A DNA stretch of 64,000 nucleotides, taken from an uncultured virus (IMG/VR IMGVR_UViG_3300028394_000058) (taxonomy: Duplodnaviria; Heunggongvirae; Uroviricota; Caudoviricetes). The stretch lies in the IMG/VR virus record IMGVR_UViG_3300028394_000058. One strand, given 5' to 3'. The position numbers and the translations under genes were made by a program. Below, piece by piece: positions 10,722 to 60,702 of the stretch; the stretch's first letter is position 1, and every line of letters starts with the position of its first letter. Under the pieces are notes generated by a model that made no database searches, had not been told where the DNA came from, and worked only from the letters and a program-made list of their open reading frames with translations.

Positions 10722-11156
10722 TTAAGTGTAAAATACATGATTACCAATTTTATCAGTTTGTTTTAACCGCCATAGTGGTTTAACTTTTAAGTTGTGATAG
10801 TGTGTAGCATTAGTTTTATAATAGTCAGGGTTTAATATTACTAATTTAGCAATATGTAGGCTATTTAACCAAGCGCTTTTGTCTAAGATAGGTTTGTACT
10901 TATCTTTGGTCCAGCTAAATTGACCGCGCTGATAAACTACGCCACAAATAGTCTTTTTAAAATTGCCGCTAGCAACACGATTCAGGGTAACTTTAGCTAC
11001 TGCTATTTTACCCTGCAGGGTTTCTCCTCTGGCCTCGTGATAGATATTTTTAGCCAAACATACGGTTTCATTGTCATATACCCAACTTCTTGGTATATCC
11101 GCAGAGTTAATAGCGTGAGGAATTGCTAACAGGCATAATACTAGGAATTTTATCAT
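10722..11156 (-). CDS. SleB-like cell wall hydrolase (Hydrolase_2)
   Basis: CLAKNIYHEARGE, TICGVVYQ..QFSW, IGNHVFY; N-terminal signal peptide. Confidence 0.9.
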   Translation of the reverse strand: MIKFLVLCLLAIPHAINSADIPRSWVYDNETVCLAKNIYHEARGETLQGKIAVAKVTLNRVASGNFKKTICGVVYQRGQFSWTKDKYKPILDKSAWLNSLHIAKLVILNPDYYKTNATHYHNLKVKPLWRLKQTDKIGNHVFYT

Positions 11157-14762: not shown

Positions 14763-14846
14763 GGGCGAGTGGTGTAATGGTAGCCACGCTGGTTTTAGAA
14801 GCCAGTGCCGCAAGGCGTAAGAGTTCGAGTCTCTTCTTGCCCACCA
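14763..14846 (+). tRNA. tRNA-Leu(TAG)
   Basis: cloverleaf with long variable arm; loop TTTAGAA; encoded CCA. Confidence 0.9.
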
Positions 14847-14859
14847 TCAAGGAGCTAAT

Positions 14860-15183
14860 ATGAGCCGTACTAACAAAGACAAAAACTGGAAACTTAAATT
14901 TCCAGAATTAGACTGGGAATTTGATTCAATAAAAATTACCAGTGAAAATAGCTATAGTGTTCGTTATATTAAATTGCCGGGTGTAAAAACTAAAAAGAAA
15001 CGGGAATTGGATACTGATTGGCACTGGCTTAATACAACGCCTAGTTGGTGGACTCGTCTAATGATGAATCGTCCACAACGTCGTGCTGGTCGTGTATGGG
15101 AACATAAAGTACTTAAAGAGCTAGACTTGGAAGATTGCGATCCTCCTAGTGTAGGACATAAACCTCACATATATTATTATTAA
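14860..15183 (+). CDS. hypothetical protein
   Basis: AAGGAG RBS; TPSWWTRLMMNRPQR. Confidence 0.6.
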   Translation: MSRTNKDKNWKLKFPELDWEFDSIKITSENSYSVRYIKLPGVKTKKKRELDTDWHWLNTTPSWWTRLMMNRPQRRAGRVWEHKVLKELDLEDCDPPSVGHKPHIYYY

Positions 15184-15185
15184 AT

Positions 15186-15761
15186 ATGCAACATTTTTAC
15201 GAACAAATTCCTGGTTGGTCATTTGATATTGTTGGACAGTACAGGGCGGCAGTTGAAGGCGCTGTAAATGGCGCACACTTTGTTGAAGTTGGCAGCTGGA
15301 AAGGCCGTAGTGCAGCTTTTATGGCAGTGGAAATTATCAACAGTGGTAAGCAGATTACTTTTGACTGCGTGGATCATTTTCAAGGCAATCCAGAACAGCG
15401 TGACACTAATAGTGAAGCCTATGATAAAGACGCAGCTGACGGCAACATACAATCAATATTTACACAAAATATGTTGCCTGTAGTAGGATATTACAACGCA
15501 GTAGTACAAACAAGCCCGGCCGTAGCACAGCAATATGCTGATAATAGCCTAGATTTTGTGTTTATTGACGCAGGCCGGGACTATGACAGTGCAAAAGCAG
15601 ATATTTTAGGTTGGTGGCCAAAAGTTAAACCAGGCGGATTGCTTGCTGGACATGACATTAGGCATCCGCCAATTGATAAAGCTCTTAAAGATGCGGAAGC
15701 TGAAACCGGAAGGTATGTTAGTAACTATTGGGATTGTTGGCAAATTACTAAACCAGTTTAA
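15186..15761 (+). CDS. class I SAM-dependent methyltransferase (Methyltransf_24-like)
   Basis: FVEVGSWKGRS, DFVFIDA, KPGGLLAGHD. Confidence 0.85.
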   Translation: MQHFYEQIPGWSFDIVGQYRAAVEGAVNGAHFVEVGSWKGRSAAFMAVEIINSGKQITFDCVDHFQGNPEQRDTNSEAYDKDAADGNIQSIFTQNMLPVVGYYNAVVQTSPAVAQQYADNSLDFVFIDAGRDYDSAKADILGWWPKVKPGGLLAGHDIRHPPIDKALKDAEAETGRYVSNYWDCWQITKPV

Positions 15762-15766
15762 TATAA

Positions 15767-15858
15767 AGAGAGTTGGCTGAGTGGCTGAAGGCAGCGGTTT
15801 GCTAAACCGTCGTATGCAGTAATGTGTACCGTGGGTTCGAATCCCACACTCTCTGCCA
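15767..15858 (+). tRNA. tRNA-Ser(GCT)
   Basis: loop TTGCTAA; long variable arm; G discriminator; CCA. Confidence 0.9.
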
Positions 15859-15865
15859 AAAAATC

Positions 15866-16537
15866 ATGATAAATTTAGAAATTTTTTGTTTGCACTGGGA
15901 TAATATAGATCCTAGAATGATGACAGCACATAAAGCTGTTATGGAACATTTTGAAATTCCAGTAACCTACCATCCTATAAATATGGATCATGGTACTTGG
16001 ATGACCAAAGTAATGGAGATAAGTGAAAGCGACGCAGTAGCGTTTATAGAACCTGATTGTATTCCTATTAATAAATCTAAGTTTTTAGAATGTATTCAAT
16101 ATGCTGTGGCTAATGATACATTTTGCGGAATTGCACAGGCGTCTAATCACCTAGAGCCAAAAAACCATATTTATGCAGCACCTGGATTTTTTGTAATTAC
16201 AAAAAGTGCTTATGCAAAATTAGATAAACCCAGTTTTATGTGTACTTTTCGCAGTGATACTGGCGAAGAAGTAAGTTGGGCTGCCGAGGATAAACACTAT
16301 GATTATAGAGTAATTCTGCCTACACACTATGAAAAACCTTCTAAAGAAGGTATATGGAATCTTGGTCCGTTGGGACACTATGGTATTGGAACCGTATTTA
16401 GCGATACAGTATATCACCTATATCAGGGTCGTTATAATGACAATGTAGAATTATTTGTTAAACGTTGTAACGAAGTTATTGCAGGTACTTTTAGTACTGT
16501 TAAATTTAAACAATGTATGACACTACTAGGAGAATAA
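15866..16537 (+). CDS. putative glycosyltransferase-like protein
   Basis: start moved past the tRNA; FIEPDCIP at a DxD-like position; DTGE motif. Confidence 0.45.
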   Translation: MINLEIFCLHWDNIDPRMMTAHKAVMEHFEIPVTYHPINMDHGTWMTKVMEISESDAVAFIEPDCIPINKSKFLECIQYAVANDTFCGIAQASNHLEPKNHIYAAPGFFVITKSAYAKLDKPSFMCTFRSDTGEEVSWAAEDKHYDYRVILPTHYEKPSKEGIWNLGPLGHYGIGTVFSDTVYHLYQGRYNDNVELFVKRCNEVIAGTFSTVKFKQCMTLLGE

Positions 16538-16545
16538 TAAATACT

Positions 16546-16860
16546 ATGGATGCATATACACAAAAACTTACTGAGTACATTGGTGCACTAGATAGATTTA
16601 TTGAAAAACAATCAAAACTAAAACGTGGTGATAGTGTAAGTTGGAACAGCAGTGGTGGTACTGCTCGCGGAAAAATTACAAAAGTAATTACTAGTGGAAC
16701 TGAGCAAATACCTAATAGTAGTTTTAAGATCACAGGTACTGAAGAAGATCCCGGAGCACTTATTAGGGTTTATACTAAAGATGGTGACGGCTATAAACCA
16801 ACAGATACAATTGTAGGGCACAAATTAAAAACCCTAACTAAAATACCAAGTTTAGATTAA
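16546..16860 (+). CDS. Hva1/TUDOR (DUF2945)-like domain protein
   Basis: LKRGDSVSWNSSGGTARGKI...VGHK..TL. Confidence 0.55.
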   Translation: MDAYTQKLTEYIGALDRFIEKQSKLKRGDSVSWNSSGGTARGKITKVITSGTEQIPNSSFKITGTEEDPGALIRVYTKDGDGYKPTDTIVGHKLKTLTKIPSLD

Positions 16861-16870
16861 AGGAGCAATT

Positions 16871-17056
16871 ATGATTCGATATGAACAAGTACAGGGATAT
16901 GCCGAAGACATTCCCGAAATGCCGCCCAATCCTAAAACAGGGCGAGATGAGGACGATATGCCACAAGGTGGCGCAGAAACAATGCCCATTAACATTGTTG
17001 ATCGGGGTGGAGTTACACACGAAGGCGATATGGGTCGCTTAGGCAAAAGCGAATAA
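16871..17056 (+). CDS. hypothetical protein
   Basis: AAGGAG RBS. Confidence 0.5.
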   Translation: MIRYEQVQGYAEDIPEMPPNPKTGRDEDDMPQGGAETMPINIVDRGGVTHEGDMGRLGKSE

Positions 17057-17097
17057 GCCTTAAATTATTTGCAACACACAACACACAAGGATATAAT

Positions 17098-17325
17098 ATG
17101 AATCCATTTGAATTACGAACAAAATTGCTGGAGATGGCCACAGATCATCTTAGACGTCAGCATGAACTTAACTGCGAATTTGCCAAAGAAACTTTTAGCC
17201 AAATGATTAAAACTGGCCAAGCGCTTCAGCAAGACTATCAAAAATACATGCCAAAAATGTATACGTTTGATGATGTAGTCAACGAAGCACAAAAACTTTA
17301 TGGGTTTGTCAATAATGCTAAGTGA
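17098..17325 (+). CDS. hypothetical phage protein
   Basis: NPFELRTKLLEMA...AQKLYGFV. Confidence 0.65.
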   Translation: MNPFELRTKLLEMATDHLRRQHELNCEFAKETFSQMIKTGQALQQDYQKYMPKMYTFDDVVNEAQKLYGFVNNAK

Positions 17326-17476
17326 ATTGTGGCGCAATCTACGGCAAATGTTTAGGCCATATAGCCTAGAAGATTATATTAAGGATTGCGACCCTAAAGA
17401 CGTTATGGAACTAGAAACTCGTATGCGTAACTGGGAACGTTACCAACGCGGCATGGATTTTGGCAATAGCTATTAA
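17315..17476 (+). CDS. 53-aa protein, possibly DUF3563-like (not in ORF track)
   Basis: LEDYI...DVMELETRMRNWER. Confidence 0.45.
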   Translation: MLSELWRNLRQMFRPYSLEDYIKDCDPKDVMELETRMRNWERYQRGMDFGNSY

Positions 17477-17486
17477 GGATAATATA

Positions 17487-17621
17487 ATGAACAAATATGA
17501 ATGTGAAGTTTGTGGAAATGTACATGATGAGGAAGTAGATGGCAAGTGGGATGAGCTTCCACAATTCTATTTGTGTCCTGAATGTGGTTGCCACAAAGAC
17601 GAATACTTTTTAGTAGAATGA
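17487..17621 (+). CDS. rubredoxin, short type, 44 aa (not in ORF track)
   Basis: MNKYECEVCGNVHDE...WDELP..YLCPECG..KDEY; AAGGA RBS. Confidence 0.85.
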   Translation: MNKYECEVCGNVHDEEVDGKWDELPQFYLCPECGCHKDEYFLVE

Positions 17622-17628
17622 TAAGAAA

Positions 17629-17660
17629 CGGCAAGTTTATAGCTTGCCGCTTTATTTTGT
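17629..17660 (+). terminator. intrinsic terminator
   Basis: CGGCAAG...CTTGCCG followed by a T-rich tail. Confidence 0.6.
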
Positions 17661-17802
17661 GCTTTTCAATTTAAATGTTACAATATTGTGACAATATTGT
17701 GACAAAAACCAGTACTCAACTACTAGTAATAATTTTTGCAGCAAAAATTACTATATTGACTTTTAGTGCCTGGTACTGTATAATATCTTTAATGAACAAA
17801 TT

Positions 17803-17887
17803 GCCCAAGTGGTGAAACGGTAGACACAGGAGACTTAAAATCTCCCGCTATTAAAGCGTGCCGGTTCGAATCCGGCCTTGGGTACCA
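17803..17887 (+). tRNA. tRNA-Leu(TAA)
   Basis: loop CTTAAAA; variable arm; CCA; promoter at 17756-17784. Confidence 0.92.
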
Positions 17888-17903
17888 TAATTTTAAATTA
17901 CTT

Positions 17904-18608
17904 ATGAATTTACATATTGCTACACCAATGTATGGTGGACAGTGTTTTGGTAGCTATGCTGACTCTATTCTTAGATTACTTTATGAATGTCAAAAATTAG
18001 GCGTTGATTTAAGTTGGGAGTTTATGTATAATGAGTCGCTTATTCCTCGTGCTAGAGATAATTGTGTACACAGCTTTTTAAAAAGCCCGTGCTCACATTT
18101 AATGTTTATTGATGCAGACATTAAATTTAATCCAGAACACGTAATTAAAATGCTTTTAGCCGATAAAGACGTACTATGTGGCGTCTATCCAAAAAAAGCA
18201 ATTAATTGGGATAAAGTAAAATTTGCCATTGAAAATGGTTTAACAGAACAACGACAACTTGAGCGTAATAGTGTTGATTGGGTCGCTACTACAGAAACTA
18301 TTGGCGAGCTTCACGATAAAATGAATTCCTCTAAACCAGAAGAAATTATTTACGGTGGTACTGGTTTTATGATGATTAAACGTGAAGTTTTTGAAAAACT
18401 AAAACCAGAAGTTATTACATATAAAAACAACACAATTTACATGGACGAAGATACCTACGGGTTTTTTCAACTCTGTGTAGATCCTGATAGTAATGTGCTA
18501 CTCAGCGAAGATTATTTCTTTTGTAATAAGTGGCGAGCAATTGGTGGCAAAGTGCACCTAGCACCTTGGGCTATTCTACAGCACACTGGTACATATAGTT
18601 TTGGATAA
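17904..18608 (+). CDS. GT-A fold glycosyltransferase
   Basis: IATPMYGG, SLIPRARD, FIDADI (DxD), LSEDYFFC, HTG. Confidence 0.8.
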   Translation: MNLHIATPMYGGQCFGSYADSILRLLYECQKLGVDLSWEFMYNESLIPRARDNCVHSFLKSPCSHLMFIDADIKFNPEHVIKMLLADKDVLCGVYPKKAINWDKVKFAIENGLTEQRQLERNSVDWVATTETIGELHDKMNSSKPEEIIYGGTGFMMIKREVFEKLKPEVITYKNNTIYMDEDTYGFFQLCVDPDSNVLLSEDYFFCNKWRAIGGKVHLAPWAILQHTGTYSFG

Positions 18609-18784
18609 CTAAACTGATTTAAGCACATATACTTATGTGCTTAAATTTTATACTATATAACCCGATTTGGGTTATATAGTATAAAATTTAAGCTTACTAA
18701 TGCAGTAAGCTAACAGGCAGGTAGTACTTGCCAGTATTACCTGCTATTATAAACCCTAAAAATAATAAGAAGAAGGGGAATATT

Positions 18785-19540
18785 ATGGCAGAAGTTTTAA
18801 GCCCAAGTGGCATGATGATGGCTGGCGGTGACGGCCTTGGTTTTGGCAGCGGTGGTGGCCTTATTGGTGGTCTTATCCTTGGCAGCCTGTTACGTCAAGG
18901 CCGCGGTGGTCTTTTTGGTGGCGAAGGCGATGTTGCTGTTGCTCCCGGAGCGCAAGCTACAGCTAATATGCAACTTATGCAATCTATTGGTCAAGTTGAC
19001 AAAGCAGTTGCTGTCTCAACAGCTGCTATGGAAGCCAGCCAAGCAAATCAAACAATTGGTATTACCAATCAGCTTAACGCTCAAACAGGCTCACTAGCTA
19101 GCCGTGTTGAGGGTGTTAAAGACGTTGTTAACAGCAATGCAGTTGCTTTAATGCAGCAACTTAATACAGTTAACACAAATATGTTAGCTGGTTTTAATCA
19201 GACTCAACAAGTTGTTCAAAATGACGGCGACAAGACTCGTGCACTTATTACTGCACAGTACGAAGCCACACTCAATCGTCAACTTAACGAAGCTAATAAC
19301 GCTATTATTGAGCTGCGTAGTCGTGAAAACGTCACTGCAGCTACGCGCGGTGTTGAAGTTACAACTACCAACAACATCAATCAGATGCAACAGCAAGCTC
19401 AACAACAGGCTCAGTATGGCCAGTTGTACAATGCAATTTGGGGGCTTGGACAACAAATTCGTAGTACAAACGAAGCAATTAACGTTGGTAGCGGCACACT
19501 TACCGCTAACCCAGCAAATACCAATACAAACATTCGGTAA
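18785..19540 (+). CDS. Gly-rich/coiled-coil Gln-Asn-rich protein (putative filament subunit)
   Basis: start moved to MAEVLSP (AAGGGG RBS); GGGLIGGLILG glycine zipper; long helical Q/N/A region. Confidence 0.6.
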   Translation: MAEVLSPSGMMMAGGDGLGFGSGGGLIGGLILGSLLRQGRGGLFGGEGDVAVAPGAQATANMQLMQSIGQVDKAVAVSTAAMEASQANQTIGITNQLNAQTGSLASRVEGVKDVVNSNAVALMQQLNTVNTNMLAGFNQTQQVVQNDGDKTRALITAQYEATLNRQLNEANNAIIELRSRENVTAATRGVEVTTTNNINQMQQQAQQQAQYGQLYNAIWGLGQQIRSTNEAINVGSGTLTANPANTNTNIR

Positions 19541-19557
19541 TCCTGAACTAGGTATAC

Positions 19558-19591
19558 AGCCCCTTCAGTCAAAAGCTGTTGGGGCTTTTTT
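19558..19591 (+). terminator. intrinsic terminator
   Basis: AGCCCC...GGGGCT followed by a T run. Confidence 0.7.
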
Positions 19592-19605
19592 ATAGGGATT
19601 ACAAA

Positions 19606-20124
19606 ATGGATCAAAGACAAAGACAAGGAATGCCTTTTGGCTTTCCTATGACTCCCTACATAGCTCCACCGCCTCCAGTAATTGGTCCTTGGTGTCCACC
19701 ACCATTTCCAGATGATGATGTATTTATTAACTATGCTCCAGGCGGACTTCCTGGGCCTCCCGGCCCACCCGGACCCCAAGGCCCAGCAGGCCCCGAAGGC
19801 CCGCCGGGCCCGCCTGGACCACAGGGTCCCCCTGGGTCGTTGGCAAACTTGCCGGTTACCTTAGTAGATGCGGCAGCTTACCCAGCCACTAATGACGACT
19901 ACTTTATTGGAGTAATCTTTAATGGCGCAAGTACTATTACACTACCAGCTGGTACATTAGGCAAAATATTTATTATCAAAGACAGCACAGGCGATGCACT
20001 AGTCAACCCAATTACTGTAGTTGCAACTGCTAGTACAATAGATGGCCAGGCAAGCTATATAATCGACTCGCCTTGGGGCTCCATTGGCCTTATATACAAT
20101 GGAATTGAATGGAACGTAACTTAA
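19606..20124 (+). CDS. collagen-like protein with C-terminal beta domain
   Basis: Pro-rich N-terminus; continuous Gly-X-Y run; ITLP...IIKD...IDG...YNG.EW tail. Confidence 0.75.
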   Translation: MDQRQRQGMPFGFPMTPYIAPPPPVIGPWCPPPFPDDDVFINYAPGGLPGPPGPPGPQGPAGPEGPPGPPGPQGPPGSLANLPVTLVDAAAYPATNDDYFIGVIFNGASTITLPAGTLGKIFIIKDSTGDALVNPITVVATASTIDGQASYIIDSPWGSIGLIYNGIEWNVT

Positions 20125-20149
20125 TAGCCTGATAAAAAGGAATAATAAA

Positions 20150-20554
20150 ATGGCTTTTAACTCTCCCTTAGCTTCACCCACCAGTTATGGTGTGGTTGAA
20201 ATCGGTACTGGTATTTCAGTAACTAATGGTGTAATCTCAGTTGCACCCAATGGTCAAGTAAATACTCAACTCGTCAATAACGCAGCTAGTCCCTATACCC
20301 TAGACAGTGCAGGCACAGTGCCTAATTACTATCTTGGAGTTGTAGGAACAGGTGCTGCAATTACAATCAATCTTACGGCTGGCGTAGATGGTCGTGAAGT
20401 TGTAATTAAATCCGAAGCAACTAATACCAGCGACATTACAATTGTGCCCAATGGCGCAGAAACAATTGAAAATGCCGCTACATATCCAATTTTAGCTGTT
20501 ACCGATGGTAGTGTAACGCTAATTTTCCGCGGAACAAACTGGAACGCAGTTTAA
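20150..20554 (+). CDS. fibre-tip-like beta-domain protein
   Basis: GVVEIGTGISV repeat; C-terminal domain paralogous to 19606 and 20571. Confidence 0.6.
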   Translation: MAFNSPLASPTSYGVVEIGTGISVTNGVISVAPNGQVNTQLVNNAASPYTLDSAGTVPNYYLGVVGTGAAITINLTAGVDGREVVIKSEATNTSDITIVPNGAETIENAATYPILAVTDGSVTLIFRGTNWNAV

Positions 20555-20570
20555 TTAACCGGGGGTTAGT

Positions 20571-21044
20571 ATGAGTTATATCAGACCCCCAGCATCTACC
20601 CTTGCAGGCGTTGCCTTAAAGCAGACGCCTGCTCCCAGTACTCAGGCCCTAACTCCTGTAGTATTAGATGCTGAAATTGCCACTGCTGGGCAACTTGGCG
20701 TTGTACAAGTAGGTAGTGGCTTATCAATTACTCCACAAGGAGTATTAAGTGCTACAACTAGTAGTAGTTTATTTGCAGTAAAAATAGTTACAGCAAATTA
20801 CACAGCTATTGCCAATGACTACTATATTGGCGCTATTAAAAAAGACATTACCATAACACTTCCCTTAGGTGTAACTGGTAAAGTATATGTTATAAAAAAT
20901 GAAGAAAATGGCGAAATTACCGTAACTGGTACTGCTGGCCAAAAAATAGATGGATCTGTTTCTGAAAAATTAAGTACCAATAAATCACTAATGATTATAT
21001 TTAATGGTACTGAATGGCAATCTATTGCTAGAAATAATAGTTAA
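20571..21044 (+). CDS. fibre-tip-like beta-domain protein
   Basis: LGVVQVGSGLSIT; ITLP...VIKN...IDG...FNGTEW. Confidence 0.6.
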   Translation: MSYIRPPASTLAGVALKQTPAPSTQALTPVVLDAEIATAGQLGVVQVGSGLSITPQGVLSATTSSSLFAVKIVTANYTAIANDYYIGAIKKDITITLPLGVTGKVYVIKNEENGEITVTGTAGQKIDGSVSEKLSTNKSLMIIFNGTEWQSIARNNS

Positions 21045-21063
21045 CCCTTTACCTTAAATTAAA

Positions 21064-21255
21064 ATGTTTACCAAAGACTTACCCTCACTAAGCACTAGTC
21101 AAATGACTGCTATTGAAATTGCTATTAATTCAATAGATGACTTAATTGAATCCGCTACTAGTTTTACTAAAAACGGTGGACAAAGTTATCGCGCATTTTT
21201 AGCTGATCGTAGTCACCTAATCACAAAAATCTGCGAATTACCAAACTGCAAATAG
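21064..21255 (+). CDS. hypothetical protein
   Basis: 63-aa ORF. Confidence 0.45.
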   Translation: MFTKDLPSLSTSQMTAIEIAINSIDDLIESATSFTKNGGQSYRAFLADRSHLITKICELPNCK

Positions 21256-21335
21256 CCAAAAATTTTTTAACTTGAAATTTGCTAATGATTGGGGTATAAT
21301 ACTTATTCTATGGAAAATTTCAACACAGCAAAACT

Positions 21336-21551
21336 ATGCAAAAAACAAACCGCTTTGATTTTGAACAACAAATGATGGATTGCTGGGGTGTAGTAGATGA
21401 CATTAAAACCATCTACTATCTTGGCGACTTGCGAGATACAACAGAAGATGAAATGCAGAATTTATTGCTAGGCCTGTTTACTATGTATCAGGTCAAGTTT
21501 GAGATTCTACAAAAAATGTTTGAAGATTTGGTTCACAGCAAACAGTTGTAA
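21336..21551 (+). CDS. hypothetical phage protein
   Basis: RFDFEQQMMDCW.VVDDI; promoter at 21272-21300. Confidence 0.65.
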   Translation: MQKTNRFDFEQQMMDCWGVVDDIKTIYYLGDLRDTTEDEMQNLLLGLFTMYQVKFEILQKMFEDLVHSKQL

Positions 21552-21558
21552 ATGGGTA

Positions 21559-21632
21559 GCCCTGTTAGTTAAATGGTAGAACACCTGTTTTGTAATCAGG
21601 GGATGGCAGTTCGATTCTGTCACGGGGCACCA
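21559..21632 (+). tRNA. tRNA-Thr(TGT)
   Basis: loop TTTGTAA; T-arm GTTCGATTC; CCA. Confidence 0.88.
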
Positions 21633-21720
21633 TATAAAAATATTCTGGTCGGTGTGGTGAGACACGCAAGTAGACAATACTAGGACAAGGTTTGAATCCA
21701 AACTAGAGTATTTTTATATG

Positions 21721-22016
21721 GTTGTATGAAACGAGCCGAAAGGCGCGCTGGACGTGGGTTCGACTCCCACCTGGTCCACCAGAAGCACATATAGTTGTCC
21801 TAGATGAAAGAAACCTCTGAGGGCTCTAGCGGGGATTATTGTGTGCTTCTGATGGGCCAGCCATGGTTTCGACAGTGTGATAAGTATGCAAGTGGACAAC
21901 TCGGTAGGCGATCTCCGCAAAAGAAGCAAACTATATAAATGCCAACGATGAGGTATTTGCCCTAGCCGCTTAAGCTAGTGCCGAGGTATGCCCCCGCCTT
22001 GTAACCAAGGGGGGCT
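21721..22016 (+). ncRNA. ssrA: circularly permuted (two-piece) tmRNA
   Basis: T-arm plus CTGGTCC-A-CCA (21754-21781) precedes the 5' acceptor strand GGGCCAG (21854-21860); G3:U70 pair; tag ORF 21941-21973 ANDEVFALAA-stop; ends approximate. Confidence 0.9.
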
Positions 22017-22027
22017 TTTTTATTTTA
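21990..22027 (+). terminator. intrinsic terminator closing the tmRNA gene
   Basis: GCCCCC..CTTG...CAAGGGGGGC followed by a T run. Confidence 0.75.
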
Positions 22028-22034
22028 TATTCCT

Positions 22035-22652
22035 ATGACTAAAAATGCAACAGATAATGAATTTATCCTCGACACAGGTAATAGTCGTGGGTTTCGTAAA
22101 TGTACTAGTGCACTTTACGAATTTTACTTGAGTGGTTTAATTACTGGACCCGAAGATTACATTGAGTGGTTTAATACTATTCGTAGTGCTAGTGATCAAG
22201 ATGTAGTAAAAATTTATATTAATAGTAGTGGTGGAGATCTTAATTGTGCATTACAATTTATGCGTGTGTTAAGTGAAACACCCGCTACTGTAGTGTGTAG
22301 TGTTGAGGGCAGTTGCATGAGTGCTGCTACAATGATCTTCTTATGTGCTGATATATTTGAAGTAACACCGCACAGCTTATTTATGTTTCACAACTATAGT
22401 GGTGGCATATTTGGTAAAGGTGGGGAAATTTATGATCAAGCAGTATTTGAGCGTGAGTGGTCTCGACAATTCTTGCAGCATATTTACAAAGACTTCTTAA
22501 CTGAAAAAGAAATTGAAAGTCTGTTGGAAAATAAAGACTTGTGGTTGCACAGTGAAGAAGTAAGTTGCAGAGTAGAAAAACTTTGTGAAGCTAAAAGGGC
22601 TACAAGAGATGCTGACTCCGTGTGTGATGATTTGCAAGATGACGCCGAGTAA
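22035..22652 (+). CDS. ClpP-like serine protease
   Basis: IYINSSGG, CMSAAT (Ser), FMFHN (His), DLWL..EE. Confidence 0.85.
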   Translation: MTKNATDNEFILDTGNSRGFRKCTSALYEFYLSGLITGPEDYIEWFNTIRSASDQDVVKIYINSSGGDLNCALQFMRVLSETPATVVCSVEGSCMSAATMIFLCADIFEVTPHSLFMFHNYSGGIFGKGGEIYDQAVFEREWSRQFLQHIYKDFLTEKEIESLLENKDLWLHSEEVSCRVEKLCEAKRATRDADSVCDDLQDDAE

Positions 22653-22815
22653 TTATAAATGTATTGGTTGTCATAGAACTCTAGAAGAGATTACAAATTG
22701 GCAGCATTATACTGATAAACAAAGATTAGAAATAATGGATAGAATAGACAATGAATCCTTTAGTGACTGTAATAACACCAACAACGGGCAATCCTTTACT
22801 GGGACGAGCAATTGA
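22609..22815 (+). CDS. DUF1289-like Cys-rich protein
   Basis: TPCVMICKM....CIGCHRTLEEI.NW. Confidence 0.75.
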   Translation: MLTPCVMICKMTPSNYKCIGCHRTLEEITNWQHYTDKQRLEIMDRIDNESFSDCNNTNNGQSFTGTSN

Positions 22816-23482
22816 TTCTGTTTTAGAGCAGACGTATAAGCCTATTGAATATATTATTGTAATTGATGGCTGGAAAAATGAAGCTGCAGCTAGAGAAATT
22901 ATTGCTAATGCACATAGAATGTGTCATGTAATTGTATTGCCATTTCCAACTGGAATGAATGGATATAACGGACATAGAATTTATGGCGCAATGAATTTTA
23001 TCGGTCGCGGACAATATACCTGTTATTTAGATGAAGATAACTACTATGATAAAAATCACATTGAATCATTAGTCGATGTGATAAAGCCAGAACACAAGTG
23101 GGCATATTCACTAAGAAAAATTGTAGATGCTGATAGCAATATAATTTGTAATGATGATTGTGAATCACTAGGATCCTGGACTAACGTACTTAATGACAAT
23201 CTTGTTGATGTAGGTTGTTATATGCTGGGCAAACAAGCAGCGCTTGAAACAGCACCTATTTGGTATAGGCGGGCTAGGCATCCTGATGATCAGCCAGAAG
23301 TAGATCGAGCACTCTATCAAACTTTAATTAGTTTATATGGCGAAGATGCCACAACTAGTAATAAACAATATACATTAAACTATACAGCAGGCAATACTGT
23401 AAATAGCGTAAAGCCAGAATTTTTTATTCATGGCAATGCTAAAATGCAAGAAATTGCTCAAGGATATCCTTGGCGCGATTAG
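22751..23482 (+). CDS. glycosyltransferase family 2
   Basis: VTVITPT...AIDSVLEQTY..IEYIIVIDG; YLDEDN. Confidence 0.88.
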   Translation: MNPLVTVITPTTGNPLLGRAIDSVLEQTYKPIEYIIVIDGWKNEAAAREIIANAHRMCHVIVLPFPTGMNGYNGHRIYGAMNFIGRGQYTCYLDEDNYYDKNHIESLVDVIKPEHKWAYSLRKIVDADSNIICNDDCESLGSWTNVLNDNLVDVGCYMLGKQAALETAPIWYRRARHPDDQPEVDRALYQTLISLYGEDATTSNKQYTLNYTAGNTVNSVKPEFFIHGNAKMQEIAQGYPWRD

Positions 23483-23547
23483 CTCAGCGGTAGAGCAATG
23501 CCTTTACACGGCAAAGGTCGGCGGTTCAATCCCGTCATCGCGTACCA
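23473..23547 (+). tRNA. tRNA-Val(TAC)
   Basis: loop TTTACAC; CCA; overlaps the last 10 nt of the GT2 gene. Confidence 0.9.
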
Positions 23548-23553
23548 GTACCA

Positions 23554-23630
23554 GGGCCTATAGCTCAGTTGGTTAGAGCACTCGACTCATAATCGATTGG
23601 TCACAGGTTCAAGTCCTGTTGGGCCCACCA
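23554..23630 (+). tRNA. tRNA(CAT), probably Ile2 (lysidine type)
   Basis: loop CTCATAA; body resembles bacterial tRNA-Ile2. Confidence 0.85.
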
Positions 23631-23634
23631 ATAT

Positions 23635-23710
23635 TCCCTAGTAGCACAGAGGTAGTTGCACTTGACTGTTAATCAAGGTGTCCGTGGTTCGATCCCACGC
23701 TGGGGAGCCA
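23635..23710 (+). tRNA. tRNA-Asn(GTT)
   Basis: loop CTGTTAA; G discriminator; CCA. Confidence 0.9.
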
Positions 23711-23716
23711 AACAAT

Positions 23717-23790
23717 AGCGGGTTAGAGAAAAGGCATCTTGCCAGTTTCATATGCTGGAGTTGGGGGTTCGAGTCCCTCACCCGCAACCA
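23717..23790 (+). tRNA. tRNA-Met(CAT), initiator-like
   Basis: loop TTCATAT; 1:72 mismatch; A11:U24; CCA. Confidence 0.8.
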
Positions 23791-23796
23791 GACAGT

Positions 23797-23870
23797 TGGG
23801 ATATAGTGTAACGGCAACACCACGGATTTTGATTCCGTTATTCTAGGTTCGAATCCTAGTATCCCTGCCA
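23797..23870 (+). tRNA. tRNA-Gln(TTG)
   Basis: loop TTTTGAT; G discriminator; CCA. Confidence 0.9.
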
Positions 23871-27037: not shown

Positions 27038-27670
27038 ATGAAGCGAACTATTGCTATTTTTGTCAATGATCCGGTCTGTGAAGTAGAATGTGCACTGGCT
27101 ATGGAAGCTGCGCTTGAAGAGCATTTTATAGTTAAACTATTTGGCATTGAAGACCTTACCACTTTTTTCTTGAGCACAGTAGATATTCTAGCATTTCCTG
27201 GCGGCATTGGCGATGCTGATTGGTTTGATACAATCTTTGACAAAGAAGACGTTGAAACAGTTCGTGATTTTGTATATGCTGGTGGCAAGTATTTAGGCAT
27301 TTGCATGGGCTCTTACTGGGCTGGTGCAAACTATTTTGACTTGATGTGGGAAGTAGAGCCAGTACAGTATATAAAGCGATTTGGCTCAGAGATTACTACT
27401 GAATTTGCAACTACTGCTCAAGTATTGTGGGACGGTATACCACAAGATATGTATTTTTATGACGGGTGTAGTTTTATTGGGCAGACTAAACACTGTGAAG
27501 TAATTGCTACTTATGCTAACGGCGACCCAATGGCTATTTATCAAGGCAACTTGGGGTTGATTGGTTGTCATCCAGAAAGCGAACAGTGGTGGTATGACCT
27601 GGATGACCTAGAAGGTTGGCACGGCGGGCATCATAATGACATTTTTTGTGACTTTGTACTAAATTTATGA
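27038..27670 (+). CDS. BPL_N-like class I glutamine amidotransferase-fold protein
   Basis: FPGG, GGKYLGICMGSY (Cys nucleophile elbow), GCHPE. Confidence 0.8.
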   Translation: MKRTIAIFVNDPVCEVECALAMEAALEEHFIVKLFGIEDLTTFFLSTVDILAFPGGIGDADWFDTIFDKEDVETVRDFVYAGGKYLGICMGSYWAGANYFDLMWEVEPVQYIKRFGSEITTEFATTAQVLWDGIPQDMYFYDGCSFIGQTKHCEVIATYANGDPMAIYQGNLGLIGCHPESEQWWYDLDDLEGWHGGHHNDIFCDFVLNL

Positions 27671-28620
27671 GCATTAAACAATATTTAGACGCGGCAAGTC
27701 AGGCTTACTATGCTGGCTTTCCTATTATCAGTGACGAGCAATTTGATCGCCTAGCCGAAACTGCAAAGTATTCGGCTGTTGGCGCACAGGCTGTTGGCTT
27801 AAAGGCTAAACATTACTATCCTATGTTTAGTTTGCAAAAGCACTACGAAGATGAAGGCAAGCCCAATCCTATAGAGGGTATGGGCGACGTTAGCATGAGT
27901 GTTAAACTAGACGGCGCTGCTGTTAGCCTGCTATATGTAGACGGTGAGTTGGTACAAGCACTTACTCGTGGTGATGGGGTTGAAGGTCAGGTAGTTACTG
28001 ATAAGTTTCTTAGTAGTGCTAGTCTAGTTCCACACACTATTAGGCATAATGGTGTGATTCAAGTCACTGGCGAAATTGTGGCCCCAAATCACATTGCTAA
28101 TGCCAGAAATTATGCTGCTGGTGCACTTAATCTTAAAGATACTAGCGAATTTGCTACTCGTGCAATTACTTTTTTTGCATACGGCGTTCAGCCATTTATT
28201 GGCCAAACCTACGACGCAGATATGCTAATGCTTAAACGTTTTGGGTTTAATACGGTTCAGGAAACTGATCTAGAAAAAATTTATCCCACAGACGGCGTAG
28301 TATTTAGACTTAACAATAATCACCAATTTGAAGAGTTAGGATATACTAGCAAACACCCTCGTGGTGCTTATGCTCGTAAAGAGCGTGCTGCTCATGTAGA
28401 GACTAAACTGCTGGATGTTGAATGGCAAGTAGGTAAATCCGGAAAAGTAACCCCAGTAGCAATTCTAGAACCTGTGCTAGTAGGAGACGCAGTGGTAAGC
28501 CGAGCCACTCTTAATAATCCAGGATTTATCGAATCACTAGGCCTGGAAATTGGAGATACCGTAGCTATTATTAGGGCTGGGGAAATTATTCCCTGCGTAT
28601 TGCACAAGGTAGAGGCATAG
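27667..28620 (+). CDS. ligA: NAD-dependent DNA ligase, subunit A
   Basis: KLDG, LTRGDG.EG, NARNYAAG, WQVGKSG.VTPVA, RAGEIIP. Confidence 0.92.
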   Translation: MSIKQYLDAASQAYYAGFPIISDEQFDRLAETAKYSAVGAQAVGLKAKHYYPMFSLQKHYEDEGKPNPIEGMGDVSMSVKLDGAAVSLLYVDGELVQALTRGDGVEGQVVTDKFLSSASLVPHTIRHNGVIQVTGEIVAPNHIANARNYAAGALNLKDTSEFATRAITFFAYGVQPFIGQTYDADMLMLKRFGFNTVQETDLEKIYPTDGVVFRLNNNHQFEELGYTSKHPRGAYARKERAAHVETKLLDVEWQVGKSGKVTPVAILEPVLVGDAVVSRATLNNPGFIESLGLEIGDTVAIIRAGEIIPCVLHKVEA

Positions 28621-28686: not shown

Positions 28687-29445
28687 ATGAAGATCAAAAT
28701 TCCAACTACTTGTCCGTGTTGCGACTATACCCTAGAGCTTGTCAATGACCAACTTTTTTGTCGTAATCAAGCCTGTAGCGCACAGCTAGGCAAAAAGTTG
28801 GAACATTTTTGTAAGACGTTAGGCATCAAAGGCATGGGTGCTAGAACACTAGAGAAACTTCAACTTACTGATATTACTGAGATCTACTATCTCGAACTTG
28901 ATCAAATTATTGAGCTATTGGGTAGTGAAAAGATTGCAGTAAAATTGTTAGATGAAATTGACAAGTCTCGTAACAGTGATCTAGCAGCCATTCTACCAGC
29001 TTTTAGTATTCCACTTGTAGGTAACACAGCGGCACAAAAAATTGCAAAAGTAGTGTGTGGCATTGATGATATTACTCAAGAACGATGCAAACAAGCTGGT
29101 TTAGGAGAAAAAGTTACTAACAATCTAATCTCTTGGCTAGAGACAGATTTCGTAGAAATGAGAGAGTTTTTGCCATTCTCTTTCAAAACAAGCAATAAGC
29201 CAGTAGCCAATGTAAGTGCCGAAAGCGTCTGCATAACTGGTAAATTAACTTCATTTAAAACTAAGGCAGAAGCCACTAAAGCATTAGAACAAGCTGGATT
29301 TAAAGTTACCGAAACCGTAACTAAACAAACCAACTATCTAGTTGATGAAGATAACAAAGGCAGCTCAAAACGTACCAAAGCCGACCAGCTCGGCATTACA
29401 ATTATCGAAAACTTATCACAATTTTTAAACGAGAAAAAAATATGA
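28687..29445 (+). CDS. ligB: NAD-dependent DNA ligase, subunit B (Zn finger, HhH, BRCT)
   Basis: PTTCPCC...C.N..C, HhH motifs, BRCT CITG...SSK..KA..LGI; own promoter at 28632-28660. Confidence 0.9.
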   Translation: MKIKIPTTCPCCDYTLELVNDQLFCRNQACSAQLGKKLEHFCKTLGIKGMGARTLEKLQLTDITEIYYLELDQIIELLGSEKIAVKLLDEIDKSRNSDLAAILPAFSIPLVGNTAAQKIAKVVCGIDDITQERCKQAGLGEKVTNNLISWLETDFVEMREFLPFSFKTSNKPVANVSAESVCITGKLTSFKTKAEATKALEQAGFKVTETVTKQTNYLVDEDNKGSSKRTKADQLGITIIENLSQFLNEKKI

Positions 29446-46544: not shown

Positions 46545-47257
46545 TAATTGTTGTAAGCTAAAATAATTTGTTTGCACATTTTACTGCGTACAATATCTTC
46601 GTCTAAAAATCTAACTACTTGAATATTAGGTAAACCTTCTAGTCTGTTAACAGCATCTTCTAGTCCACTGTCTACAATATCTACTTGTTTAGGATCACCA
46701 CTTAGGATAACTTTGCAGTTTTTACCTATTCTGGAAAGCAACATTTTTAACTCTATCTTGCTTAAATTTTGTGCTTCGTCTACTAAGATTACTGTATCGT
46801 CAAAACTACTGCCGCGCATAAACCCTATTGGTTTAGGATCTATATTTTTATTTTTTAGTGCGTATTGATAGAATCCCTGACCTAGTGTACGAGTAAATAC
46901 ACTGTCAAAAGGTGCTAAGTATGGTGCATATTTTTCATCAATAGCACCAGGTAAAAATCCCATACCGCGACCAGTTTCTACGTTAGGCCTAGTAAGAACT
47001 ATTTTGTCAATACGTTTATAAAACAATTCGCAAGCAGCATAACTAGCAGCTACATATGTCTTTCCTGTTCCTGCACTTCCAATTCCAAAAACTACATCAC
47101 TAGAACGTATTGCTTCAAGATAGACGCCTTGAATGTAGTTAAGAGGTTTGACTTCAATAAAAGTATGTTTACTAGGTTTATCAAATTTTTCGGACTTGTC
47201 TTCGCGCAAAGCTTTACCAGAGGAAGGTTTCATAGAGATTCCTATGTGTTGTTTCAA
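46544..47257 (-). CDS. phoH: PhoH-like ATPase
   Basis: GSAGTGKT, GFLPG, FMRG.SF, DEAQN, GD..Q.D, DIVRS; start uncertain. Confidence 0.92.
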   Translation of the reverse strand: MKQHIGISMKPSSGKALREDKSEKFDKPSKHTFIEVKPLNYIQGVYLEAIRSSDVVFGIGSAGTGKTYVAASYAACELFYKRIDKIVLTRPNVETGRGMGFLPGAIDEKYAPYLAPFDSVFTRTLGQGFYQYALKNKNIDPKPIGFMRGSSFDDTVILVDEAQNLSKIELKMLLSRIGKNCKVILSGDPKQVDIVDSGLEDAVNRLEGLPNIQVVRFLDEDIVRSKMCKQIILAYNN

Positions 47258-47829
47258 TTTAAATACTTTTCGTATTTTGTACTTCTTGTATTTAATACAT
47301 CCTCCACATGATGTCTGTTAATATCACAAGCACTACGATTGCCATATAGTGCAACTTTTGATTTCAAACAAAGTTTCTCTACATTACCAAACCACAAATT
47401 AGGATTACACCAATTAGCCAATTTACAAGCTCTGCGTTCGTGTTCTACGCCACCTAAACCGCCGTTATAGGCAGCATCAGCAAAAGCATATGCTTCACGA
47501 CGATCAGGTACATGCTTACTAAAATACTGATAATTATCCCGCATCATTAATGCTAGTGCTCTGATTTGCAGGTCTGGGCGGTCATAGACTACTTGCCAGT
47601 TTAAGTCGTACAATTCCTTAGGATATTTATGTTTTAAGTCTGATAAAGCATCAAACCTAATCGATCCATCCGGTTTAAAAGCCCTGGTAATTTGTCCAAG
47701 CCCTGCACCCTCCTCTCTAGCACTTTTTAGTCTAGATTTAGAGTTCCAACATTTACTATGCGTAAGTGATATACAGGACTCGTGCTCTATTAAACTACCA
47801 AGGTATGCGGCTTTGGGTGTGTAGCCCAA
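47254..47829 (-). CDS. lytic transglycosylase (SLT-like) endolysin domain, probably the -1 frame continuation of 47790..48209
   Basis: IEHES catalytic Glu, GAGLGQ, AAYNGG, YV-like HHVEDV; no well-spaced RBS for the TTG start. Confidence 0.8.
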   Translation of the reverse strand: MGYTPKAAYLGSLIEHESCISLTHSKCWNSKSRLKSAREEGAGLGQITRAFKPDGSIRFDALSDLKHKYPKELYDLNWQVVYDRPDLQIRALALMMRDNYQYFSKHVPDRREAYAFADAAYNGGLGGVEHERRACKLANWCNPNLWFGNVEKLCLKSKVALYGNRSACDINRHHVEDVLNTRSTKYEKYLN

Positions 47830-48209
47830 ACCTTATTTTTTTCCAGTTGAAGCGTGGGTAAATGTTGTTGTGCTTGTTGCGGAATATAAGTACTTGGCGA
47901 CTGTGCGTATACTTGCGAGCCGAATAAGCTGAGCAAGCCGTAGATAATAATACACAGACCTAAAAAAGCTAAACCTGCGCCAGTGGCGGTTTCGCGTGCC
48001 TTTTTTAGCAAGGTTTCCATATCAGCGTAGTCAAATAGTGCTCGGCGTGCTAAGTGCGCAAACCACACGGCTACTACTGGAGTGGCTAATTTGGCTAGAA
48101 ATGGAATAGTCAAATTGCCGCCATTGGGGTCACTAAGGTAAAGATATACCATAACAATGAGTGTACCGCCAATCATAAAAATATTGCGGAAACGAAAATG
48201 TTCTTTCAT
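47790..48209 (-). CDS. three-TM holin-like protein / N-terminal part of a membrane-anchored endolysin
   Basis: three hydrophobic segments; the last ends VYA-Q; C-CCA-AAG near the 3' end. Confidence 0.65.
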   Translation of the reverse strand: MKEHFRFRNIFMIGGTLIVMVYLYLSDPNGGNLTIPFLAKLATPVVAVWFAHLARRALFDYADMETLLKKARETATGAGLAFLGLCIIIYGLLSLFGSQVYAQSPSTYIPQQAQQHLPTLQLEKNKVWATHPKPHTLVV

Positions 48210-48496
48210 GGTTTGTCCAGGTTAGATAGTTTGCGTATAGTAGCAATGCTATCTAGTTGTTTAAGGGCGCATTGACCATATAGGTTAATGACGGTTAAAT
48301 AATGATCTGCAACTTGTTCATAAGTAGCACCTACTAGTGGCGGCAATAACTCACAAGGTTGCAACAGTTTAGGTTCTACTACTACTCTATTGCCAGTGGT
48401 TGCCGGAGGTGGAATTTCCGGAATTTTTTTCTGGAAAATTCCACATCCGTTTAGCAATAAGAGTAATAAACCAAGGTTTATTACTAGTTTTTTCAT
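48206..48496 (-). CDS. outer-membrane spanin (Rz1-like lipoprotein)
   Basis: lipobox LLNGC; Pro-rich; LLQPC...Y.QC. Confidence 0.75.
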   Translation of the reverse strand: MKKLVINLGLLLLLLNGCGIFQKKIPEIPPPATTGNRVVVEPKLLQPCELLPPLVGATYEQVADHYLTVINLYGQCALKQLDSIATIRKLSNLDKP

Positions 48497-48855
48497 TTAT
48501 TATTCGCTTTAGAAATTGCTTCGTTAATGCTATCTAAAAAAATTACAGCTGGGATACACTTACCGTTTTCAATTATAGTAATTGGTTGAGCTTTAAGCTT
48601 AGATTTAATATCTTTGATAGTTTTACCTAATTCCTGCTTTTTACGCTCACCTTCGGCTGCAGTTTCTTGTAGTGCTGTTTCTAAGTCTTGAATTTTTTGT
48701 TTTACTTCCAATTCATATTTTTGCTTTTCTTCTTGACACTCAAGTTTTGCTTGGTATTTACCGCGTTCATATACTACATTATAGCCGTAATATCCTAATA
48801 TAGATAATACAACAATAATTCCGATTGCAACAATTGCTTTTACATCATTAATCAT
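48493..48855 (-). CDS. inner-membrane spanin (Rz-like)
   Basis: N-terminal TM followed by coiled coil and a C-terminal Cys. Confidence 0.75.
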   Translation of the reverse strand: MINDVKAIVAIGIIVVLSILGYYGYNVVYERGKYQAKLECQEEKQKYELEVKQKIQDLETALQETAAEGERKKQELGKTIKDIKSKLKAQPITIIENGKCIPAVIFLDSINEAISKANNK

Positions 48856-60081: not shown

Positions 60082-60702
60082 TTATACGGTTTGATAAAGT
60101 TGATCAGCAGTATCATTTGTTGGACTAAATAATAACTCTACCATACCACGAACAGGTTTAAATGTGCGAGTAAAAACCGGATCTGTAGGTTCAGTTACAC
60201 GCAACTCAAAAAATCCATAACTAGCACTGTCTGGTAGGGGCTTTACATTCCAAGTACTGCCTAAACTACTAGGAAATTGAACATATACTTTATTAAGTTG
60301 AGTTACTTCCCAATTGCGATCTTTATCCGGAGTAATTGCACTAGTTACACCAATTCCAGATAATAATTTGTAGTATAAACCATTGTAAAGTACAACTTCT
60401 TCTTTGTTATATGCTTGAGCAGCACCCCAAGTTCCTAAAAATACTGGCAATCTAACAAATAATCTGGTAGTTGTAGCACTAGGGTCAACAACTGTTGGTT
60501 TTTCAGTTTGTCCACTTACATTTTTTGCCTCAATTACAACTGCTTCATAGATGTAGTTGCCGCTTGGTTGAACACTTGCGTTTACTATAAAATTTAGGGT
60601 AATTGGAAATTCTAATTGCTCACCATAGACCATAGACCACAAGACTGCTCCAGCATCTGTAATTAAGTCTAGGCTTGTATCAGTTAATCTTGATCGTGCC
60701 AT
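60082..60702 (-). CDS. baseplate/tail-associated protein with CBM5/12-like insert
   Basis: W.....YN...VV.YNG..Y motif; C-terminal G.VELLFSP. Confidence 0.55.
   Translation of the reverse strand: MARSRLTDTSLDLITDAGAVLWSMVYGEQLEFPITLNFIVNASVQPSGNYIYEAVVIEAKNVSGQTEKPTVVDPSATTTRLFVRLPVFLGTWGAAQAYNKEEVVLYNGLYYKLLSGIGVTSAITPDKDRNWEVTQLNKVYVQFPSSLGSTWNVKPLPDSASYGFFELRVTEPTDPVFTRTFKPVRGMVELLFSPTNDTADQLYQTV

Follow-up and report, generated by a model that had tools for sequence, protein, structure and literature searches.

A conserved recoding site between a holin-like gene and the endolysin of an uncultured tailed phage

The lysis locus of an uncultured freshwater tailed phage (Caudoviricetes; IMG/VR record IMGVR_UViG_3300028394_000058), analyzed here as one stretch of 64,000 nucleotides (nt; hereafter the window), distributes its endolysin over two reading frames: a 139-amino-acid (aa) gene with an ATG start that encodes a three-helix, holin-like membrane protein (ORF1, minus strand, 48209-47790) and an open reading frame (ORF) listed as a 191-aa lysin with a TTG start (minus strand, 47829-47254), which lies in the −1 frame relative to ORF1. 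The point at which the two meet, the slippery heptamer C CCA AAG (minus strand, 47817-47811) that is in phase with ORF1 as X XXY YYZ, is a real, conserved recoding site, and the event that takes place there is very probably a programmed −1 ribosomal frameshift. On the comparative evidence set out below, we consider it likely that this frameshift sets the ratio of the membrane protein to a fusion of membrane protein and lysin.

A conserved slippery heptamer in two overlapping frames

The end of ORF1 reads TGG GCT ACA CAC CCA AAG CCG CAT ACC TTG GTA GTT TAA, in which CAC CCA AAG encodes His131, Pro132, and Lys133 and the terminal TAA (minus strand, 47792-47790) lies six codons past the heptamer. 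After a slip of one base backwards, the codons become GCC GCA TAC CTT GGT AGT TTA ATA GAG CAC GAG TCC (AAYLGSLIEHES) and open a −1-frame part of 185 codons and a stop (minus strand, 47254..47811), which encodes the remainder of a lytic-transglycosylase-like lysin. The two frames overlap, the second is −1 relative to the first and the in-phase heptamer lies inside the overlap; because the lysin frame is closed upstream by a TAA (minus strand, 47835-47833) that sets the 5′ limit of the shift and the 0-frame by its own stop, the frame change is confined to 47832-47793. The first-pass annotation of this DNA had claimed that a −1 slip on this heptamer leads into the lysin frame and gives a fusion of about 318 residues, and the sequence agrees with it to the residue (133 + 185 = 318 aa).

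Relatives were taken from viral contigs (a lysin scan, 80 loci) and from metagenome contigs, with both ORFs placed by tblastn, and gene layouts were classified over 84 rows (the 80 loci, three annotated phages, and the window). The split layout, with ORF1 and lysin in frames −1 apart, is found in 27 rows (the window and L004-L029), and the 26 close relatives share 49-100% identity with the window in ORF1 and 65-100% in the lysin. All 26 keep both the two-frame −1 layout and the heptamer. Indeed, CAC CCA AAR stands in phase at the junction in every one of the 27 split members, and their predicted transframe products measure 312-319 aa (except that of L023, which is cut by the contig end); the 0-frame tails past the site differ from member to member (PHTLVV, QLTLLV, AKPLEL, QQPLVV, and DI). 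Across the 23 distinct sequences, CACCCAAA is an invariant block of eight columns flanked by codons that vary, and the last base of the heptamer is G in 19 and A in four. The stops of the two frames leave about 17 nt for the shift in L028 and L029, and the heptamer falls inside that stretch. Nine of the 12 metagenome loci span the junction, and all nine are split with CAC CCA AAG; several of these loci repeat contigs of the viral set and cannot count as independent. Among the nine is a new split lineage (L091), in which a TGA directly precedes the heptamer.

The ratio of nonsynonymous to synonymous substitution (dN/dS), the variability of sites, and the invariance of synonymous sites were assessed on 18 distinct gap-free core sequences, with a mean dS of about 1. 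Among these sequences, 13 of the 71 four-fold and 24 of the 84 two-fold synonymous sites are invariant overall, and the three consecutive synonymous sites of the His, Pro, and Lys codons at the junction (C, A, and G, respectively) are invariant without exception; CACCCAAAGC ranks third in length among the invariant runs of the 953 nt. Purifying selection acts on both sides of the site, with a dN/dS of 0.058 for ORF1 codons 1-101, 0.106 for codons 102-133, and 0.118 for the lysin. Over the 45 nt that precede the heptamer, position 3 of the 0-frame is the most variable (4.78 vs. 0.61 at position 2), and over the 45 nt that follow it, position 3 of the −1 frame is (2.61 vs. 0.67); the selected reading frame switches exactly at the heptamer. 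The first-pass annotation had left open whether split and heptamer recur at homologous loci, and both prove to be conserved across synonymous saturation. Its central proposal, that one message yields a 139-aa membrane protein and, by a −1 slip, a transframe fusion, is strongly supported by this comparison.

The lysin domain, its membrane partner and their relatives

The lysin matches a family of endolysins in PHROG (phrog_669, E 8.4e-14), and searches of Pfam returned no family for the 191-aa ORF at E <= 0.1 and none for the related proteins P0005, P0008, and P0003 at E <= 0.05. P0005 is uninterrupted, 72% identical, and reads ...FWADHPKASYLAGQIEKES at the junction; an AlphaFold model of this homologue, not of the window's own product, was built from 14 sequences (predicted local distance difference test [pLDDT] 82.7). 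Residues 103-319 of the model match MltF (Z 17.8, root-mean-square deviation 2.7 over 172 residues), Slt70 (Z 16.3), and MltE (Z 15.5, 167/183 residues aligned), and a Foldseek search with it gave an E value of 1.2e-03 and a probability of 1.00. As modeled, the fold is that of a family-1 lytic transglycosylase (SLT-like, goose-lysozyme-like). The "SLT" label of the first-pass annotation is hence upheld for the fold, through the structure comparison of this homologue, and is not upheld as a Pfam family match. The motif IEHES is kept in 26 of the 27 split members (IELES in L022), and in alignment A4 E144 is invariant and S145 nearly so; we take the Glu of this Glu-Ser motif to be the catalytic Glu of family-1 lytic transglycosylases. 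The fold and the motif are common to MltF, Slt70, MltC, and MltE, from which the lysin differs in its low identity (14-21%), in the missing Pfam SLT match, and in being a phage lysis enzyme whose activity is predicted.

The domain extends across the junction. The slip site maps in the P0005 model to the loop preceding the helix that bears the Glu-Ser motif, and the first helix of the catalytic domain (residues 111-127, pLDDT about 94) has its counterpart codons in the ORF1 frame of the window; the 191-aa ORF alone would therefore miss part of the domain. ORF1 residues 103-133 correspond to the N-terminus of the mature lysin domain. In the annotated relatives YuA gp62, the Mecenats66 endolysin, and AgentSmith gp121 (231-308 aa), a signal peptide is followed by approximately 30 residues and then by the ES motif; the end of ORF1, VYA/QSPSTYIPQQAQQHLPTLQLEKNKVWATHPK (the slash marking the predicted cut), aligns with the mature N-terminal region of these lysins, and the spacing of 17 residues from a conserved Trp to the ES motif in relatives is reproduced only by a −1 junction at the heptamer.

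Beyond the split rows, 19 of the 84 show one uninterrupted ORF, 18 an ORF1-like gene of its own ahead of a signal-peptide lysin, and 20 a signal-peptide lysin with no ORF1-like match; none of the 57 non-split loci carries an X XXW WWN heptamer in phase at the junction. The protein database contains 15 uninterrupted homologues (14 of 302-319 aa and one of 528 aa), which cover 89-99% of ORF1 and are collinear with the predicted −1 product. The standalone ORF1-like proteins (105-120 aa), whose genes immediately precede those of signal-peptide lysins, stop just past helix 3. A lysin tree (84 rows, 76 of them different, quick method) places the split group on one side of a single branch, as one change, with a Shimodaira–Hasegawa-like approximate likelihood ratio test (SH-aLRT) value of 94.

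ORF1 has three hydrophobic segments (residues 10-26, 35-53, and 80-96) and K+R counts of 3 at the N-terminus, 0 in loop 1, and 5 in loop 2, a charge pattern that fits a predicted topology of N-in and C-out, with everything past helix 3 in the periplasm. Helix 3 (residues 80-96; minus strand, 47922..47972), which is homologous to helix 3 of the standalone proteins, is the presumed export signal of the lysin domain. It is followed by a predicted signal-peptidase-type site, Val100-Tyr101-Ala102 (minus strand, 47901..47909), with the cut before Gln103 and small residues at −3 and −1. The pattern V/A-x-A after helix 3 is kept in both split and uninterrupted relatives (VYA, ARA, VRA, AHA, and similar), and ...QVYA/QSPSTYIP of the window aligns with ...SVYS/QLVATYIP of the separate signal-peptide lysin of L051. 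Release by signal peptidase at VYA-Q, as the first-pass annotation had supposed, is consistent with these small residues and with the alignment to the cleavage region of the relatives' separate lysins. In the fused and split forms, helix 3 would thus have replaced the signal peptide of the lysin, with the cleavage-type site retained.

We hypothesize that most ribosomes read through to the ORF1 stop and produce the 139-aa three-helix protein (N-in, C-out), and that a fraction would slip back by one base on C CCA AAG, tRNA-Pro moving from CCA to CCC and tRNA-Lys from AAG to AAA. The slipped ribosomes would produce the 318-aa protein, with the same three helices and a complete lytic-transglycosylase-type domain on the periplasmic side. 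Since helix 3 is followed by V-Y-A/Q, signal peptidase probably cuts both products; cleavage would leave a membrane protein of 102 residues, about the size of the relatives' standalone proteins, and would turn the transframe product into a soluble periplasmic lysin. How often ribosomes slip would then determine how much lysin is made relative to the membrane protein.

On the minus strand, a putative tail fibre gene (1719 aa) is followed in order by an Rz-like i-spanin candidate, an o-spanin, ORF1, the lysin, and PhoH. The o-spanin (minus strand, 48206..48496) lies just upstream of ORF1 and is a lipoprotein of the Rz1/LysC type (Pfam LysC PF23793, E 4.7e-07; phrog_456), and the i-spanin candidate (minus strand, 48493..48855) resembles Rz-like spanins in PHROG only weakly (best E 0.0011). 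ORF1 has the genomic context of a holin, as a small membrane protein that adjoins the endolysin within a lysis cluster, between o-spanin and lysin. Profile searches with ORF1 matched no PHROG or Pfam family; the related protein P0008 has a weak match to phrog_8226, the family of YuA gp61 (E 0.017), and a profile–profile comparison with that family was likewise weak (probability 28.7%, E 6e-4).

A census of ORF1 against 1.84 billion representative proteins returned 164 proteins at E <= 0.001; the 149 newly listed include 77 proteins of 90-125 aa, 26 of 126-170 aa, and 25 of 291-370 aa. Several census proteins of 139-152 aa, 36-49% identical to ORF1, end a few residues past the homologous position (HPK+ANCSQV, HPK+LVYSQP, VPKK+PTSLV, HPDPK+CLLG, and TTPF+LGSSQA). 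Seven of 141-152 aa (P0023, P0024, P0036, P0038, P0048, P0058, and P0083) stop 0-14 residues beyond the position homologous to the slip site, some of them after Pro-Phe instead of Pro-Lys, and may, judging by their C-termini, represent further split lineages, perhaps with other slippery motifs. The viral contigs yielded no relative of P0023, P0024, P0038, or P0058 and only distant loci for P0036. Only a further census protein, P0028, led to a usable locus (L099), which lies in the complete 100.5-kb record of a remotely related phage (G001). This locus reads TGG CCT AAC GTA CCA AAA AAG CAT ATC TCG CCA GTC TAA and is split at the homologous place, with A AAA AAG in phase one codon downstream of the window's site; its −1 frame (AYLASLIEHES) runs for 185 codons with the same Trp-to-ES spacing and has no start codon before Met87.

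Alternative explanations and the efficiency of the proposed slip

The split could reflect two ordinary overlapping genes, in which ORF1 is a holin that lets out a 191-aa cytoplasmic lysin initiated at TTG 47829 or through coupling to ORF1 translation. Holin and lysin genes commonly overlap (e.g., YuA gp61/gp62), the TTG of the window (minus strand, 47827..47829) stands behind an SD-like (Shine–Dalgarno-like) TAAGG, and TTG, GTG, or ATG occupies that codon in 14 of the 26 relatives; independent initiation of the lysin is possible in these 14 loci and in the window, because an NTG precedes the heptamer there. However, in 10 of the 26 the open lysin frame contains no ATG, GTG, or TTG ahead of the heptamer (seven offer only CTG, and three have a TGA that lies one or two codons before the heptamer, between the NTG codon and the heptamer), two further relatives have only a GTG 37 codons upstream, and L091 and G001 also lack a lysin start codon before the heptamer. 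The NTG follows from the coding of ORF1 itself, being the last base of a Val/Ile codon and the TG of the conserved Trp codon (GTT TGG, Val-Trp, in the window), and its first base varies freely among T, C, G, and A; the doubt that the first-pass annotation had cast on the TTG start is borne out. The 31 residues before the junction, moreover, are homologous to the mature lysin N-terminus of relatives; purifying selection acts on them in the ORF1 frame, they make up the first helix of the catalytic domain, and selection changes frame at the heptamer, not at the NTG. Taken together, these points render a pair of independently translated genes highly unlikely. Termination and reinitiation at the ORF1 stop was also considered and rejected, as this stop lies six, three, or two codons past the heptamer depending on the lineage and has no conserved start nearby.

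The same protein would arise if RNA polymerase added one A or C at CCCAAA in some transcripts and so restored the frame. The site does offer two short homopolymers, and the variant in G001 has six A's in a row, yet three bases in a row fall far short of the runs at which transcriptional slippage is known in bacteria (roughly 7-9 or more A or T), and the in-phase X XXY YYZ register, which slippage of the polymerase does not require, is kept in every member; we therefore view this explanation as very improbable. No RNA data set with the locus appeared among 22 sequencing runs. As for the possibility that the split arose in assembly or sequencing, or that a decaying gene was recently inactivated by the loss of a single base, the commonest type of error is indeed the loss of one base from a short homopolymer, and uninterrupted relatives do exist. 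The same split, however, recurs in all 26 close loci from many metagenomes, both of its parts are under purifying selection at a dS of about 1, the split clade has three deep branches in the lysin tree, and 47811-47817 is spanned gap-free by contigs from three studies, which makes the chance of error or decay next to negligible. These contigs (X1 record 3, X2 record 10, and X4 record 14, of which X1 may be the source sample) were compared as assembled, and their only indels are a compensating pair at 47876/47880 in one divergent contig; the assembly artifact that the first-pass annotation had named as a possible refutation is not what divides the two frames.

Several observations nonetheless weigh against a programmed frameshift that sets the dose of lysin, among them the potential start codons just counted. 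No conserved stimulator was found, either as an upstream SD-like motif or as a hairpin or pseudoknot 5-9 nt downstream. The SD-like TAAGGT (minus strand, 47835-47830), which lies 12 nt from the heptamer with the TTG directly after it, had been put forward as a stimulator and finds no support, with AAGG in register in only 10 of the 23 distinct sequences; the downstream fold of the window (118 nt) is no better than that of shuffled sequences (z = -0.21), and the consensus structure downstream is weak (-7.19 kcal/mol). Heptamers without stimulators gave 2.1-10 times background in Escherichia coli (PMC4066793), so the yield of the slip could be very low. The holin label for ORF1 is itself tentative, drawing as it does on position, size, and weak profile matches. 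The window encodes a second secreted cell-wall hydrolase (minus strand, 10722-11156; 144 aa; signal peptide MIKFLVLCLLAIPHAINS) that matches Pfam Hydrolase_2 (E 2.3e-24) and the endolysin family phrog_938, adjoins thymidylate synthase, and is far from the lysis cluster, and the phage therefore need not depend on the frameshifted lysin alone. Finally, the ORF1-like part of G001 (L099, 1001-1420) contains three in-frame TAG codons; G001 encodes a tRNA with the anticodon CUA, and TAG is therefore probably a sense codon there, failing which the G001 example falls. G001 is a probable TAG-recoding phage. Its 26 tRNAs include the CUA tRNA (87 nt), tRNA-Lys(UUU), and tRNA-Pro(UGG), and its coverage by ORFs of at least 100 aa is 72% with the standard code versus 91% with TAG as sense.

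The heptamer is of a kind known to slip well. One study in E. coli places C_CC.A_AA.G among the three most efficient −1 motifs, together with A_AA.A_AA.G and G_GG.A_AA.G, reports 54% for it with the IS3 pseudoknot, and defines V_VV.A_AA.R as an efficient class (PMC4066793), to which both the G and the A form of the heptamer here belong. The frameshift sites of phage tail chaperones are often devoid of downstream RNA structure, which is rarely found at those of the lambda/P2 type (PMC3091744). A search of the window with Rfam brought only tRNAs and the transfer-messenger RNA (tmRNA) to the gathering score and nothing at the lysis locus. Within the lysin coding region there is a possible, conserved long-range helix of 10 bp (minus strand, 47699..47780; 47780-47771 with 47708-47699), in which 94.3% of cells are paired and two pairs are changed on both sides, values reached by 2 of 500 shuffles; it begins 30 nt 3′ of the heptamer and 9 nt past the 0-frame stop and was rejected as a standard stimulator on account of this distance.

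With no RNA stimulator conserved, the slip may instead be boosted by the insertion of helix 3 into the membrane. In Sindbis virus, the pull that membrane insertion exerts on the nascent chain acts at 45 residues (10.1101/790444), and helix 3 of ORF1 lies about 35 residues behind the slip codons. By extension, the locus might be a self-contained lysis module, a holin–lysin polyprotein cut by signal peptidase, with its dose set by slippage and the slip perhaps enhanced by the pull of helix 3. We regard this extended form as speculative and unlikely to hold; if true, it would be the first membrane-insertion-coupled frameshift in bacteria or phages and would tie the output of lysin to the state of the secretion machinery of the host.

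Known systems, significance and further observations

The closest mechanistic precedents are lambda G/GT (G GGA AAG) and P2 E/E+E' (T TTT TTG), tail-chaperone genes of tailed phages in which a −1 slip on X XXY YYZ yields a short and a long protein with a common N-terminus, at a conserved site and in a fixed ratio, as we propose for the window. The present case differs in concerning a lysis gene, in its heptamer (C CCA AAR, and A AAA AAG in G001), in an extension that would be an exported enzyme domain, and in sharing no homology with these genes. dnaX (tau/gamma) and IS3/IS911 similarly employ a −1 slip with tRNA-Lys on A AAA AAG, a site of the X XXA AAG type; their sites are defined by an upstream SD and a downstream hairpin or pseudoknot, neither of which is conserved here, and their role is different. 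In the alphavirus 6K/TF, a −1 frameshift is stimulated by membrane insertion of an upstream helix; this system is eukaryotic, also needs an RNA hairpin, and serves as an analogy only.

Among lysis proteins, secreted endolysins are known with signal peptides (Lys44 of Oenococcus phage fOg44) and with signal-anchor-release sequences (Lyz of P1 and R of phage 21), and their export is independent of a large holin hole. The YuA gp62, Mecenats66, and AgentSmith lysins carry plain N-terminal signal peptides, whereas in the window helix 3 of a holin-like protein would direct export of the lysin, and recoding would determine how much enzyme is made. A natural holin–endolysin fusion has been described from Clostridium sporogenes (a TpeE-family holin), with discussion by its authors of possible cleavage after transport (PMC9527704). 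In joining a membrane lysis protein to a lysin, it parallels the uninterrupted relatives of 302-319 aa; it differs in belonging to an unrelated family, with one helix and an amphipathic helix, in a Gram-positive setting, and with no frameshift, whereas the window has three helices, a predicted lytic-transglycosylase fold, and spanin neighbours.

A full-text literature search found no report of a frameshift that joins a holin-like gene to an endolysin. The words "endolysin" and "holin" do not occur in the first 300,000 of the 449,034 characters of a 2016 recoding review, and the available part of another source mentions software-predicted frameshifts only "near" endolysins and holins (PMC9671017). 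What appears to be new is the probable use of programmed frameshifting in a lysis gene, the type of mechanism being already known from lambda and P2.

Accounts of when a phage lyses its host commonly invoke holin triggering, dual-start antiholins, and secreted lysins. If a conserved frameshift coupled the quantity of a secreted enzyme to that of its membrane partner, lysis would be controlled at a further, new level, and tailed phages would have a second conserved case of recoding alongside that of the tail chaperones. The separate, fused, and frameshift-split layouts of related phages offer a natural series in which to ask why the proportions of lysis proteins are important. There is also a consequence for annotation, as gene callers will report at such loci a "holin" together with a truncated lysin that has a doubtful TTG start, or no lysin.

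A candidate tail-chaperone frameshift at 60684-60702, upstream of a 1308-aa gene, was considered and rejected: the overlap there has an ordinary ATG and SD and no slippery heptamer. The tmRNA of the window (plus strand, 21662-22022) is of the permuted betaproteobacterial type (Rfam beta_tmRNA, 135 bits; tag ANDEVFALAA), and this type hints at a freshwater betaproteobacterium as host. There are nine tRNAs in the window (14763-23870), with no tRNA-Lys or tRNA-Pro among them.

A DNA search of annotated phages matched only AgentSmith, at 17% cover. In this phage (Bacillus phage vB_BspM_AgentSmith, MW749006; L001, 1199-3280), the lytic transglycosylase gene is present as a 111-aa N-terminal copy, followed by an endonuclease gene and a full 308-aa copy, a layout suggestive of the insertion of a homing endonuclease or of partial duplication. 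The lysin N-termini of L038-L040 and L044 contain a lipobox-like signal (…LLAFGLGC/ASS), which suggests lipoprotein-anchored lysins in that branch. Elsewhere in the window, the NAD-dependent DNA ligase is encoded by two consecutive ORFs (plus strand, 27667-28620 and 28687-29445), which match the separate PHROG families 3359 and 3498.

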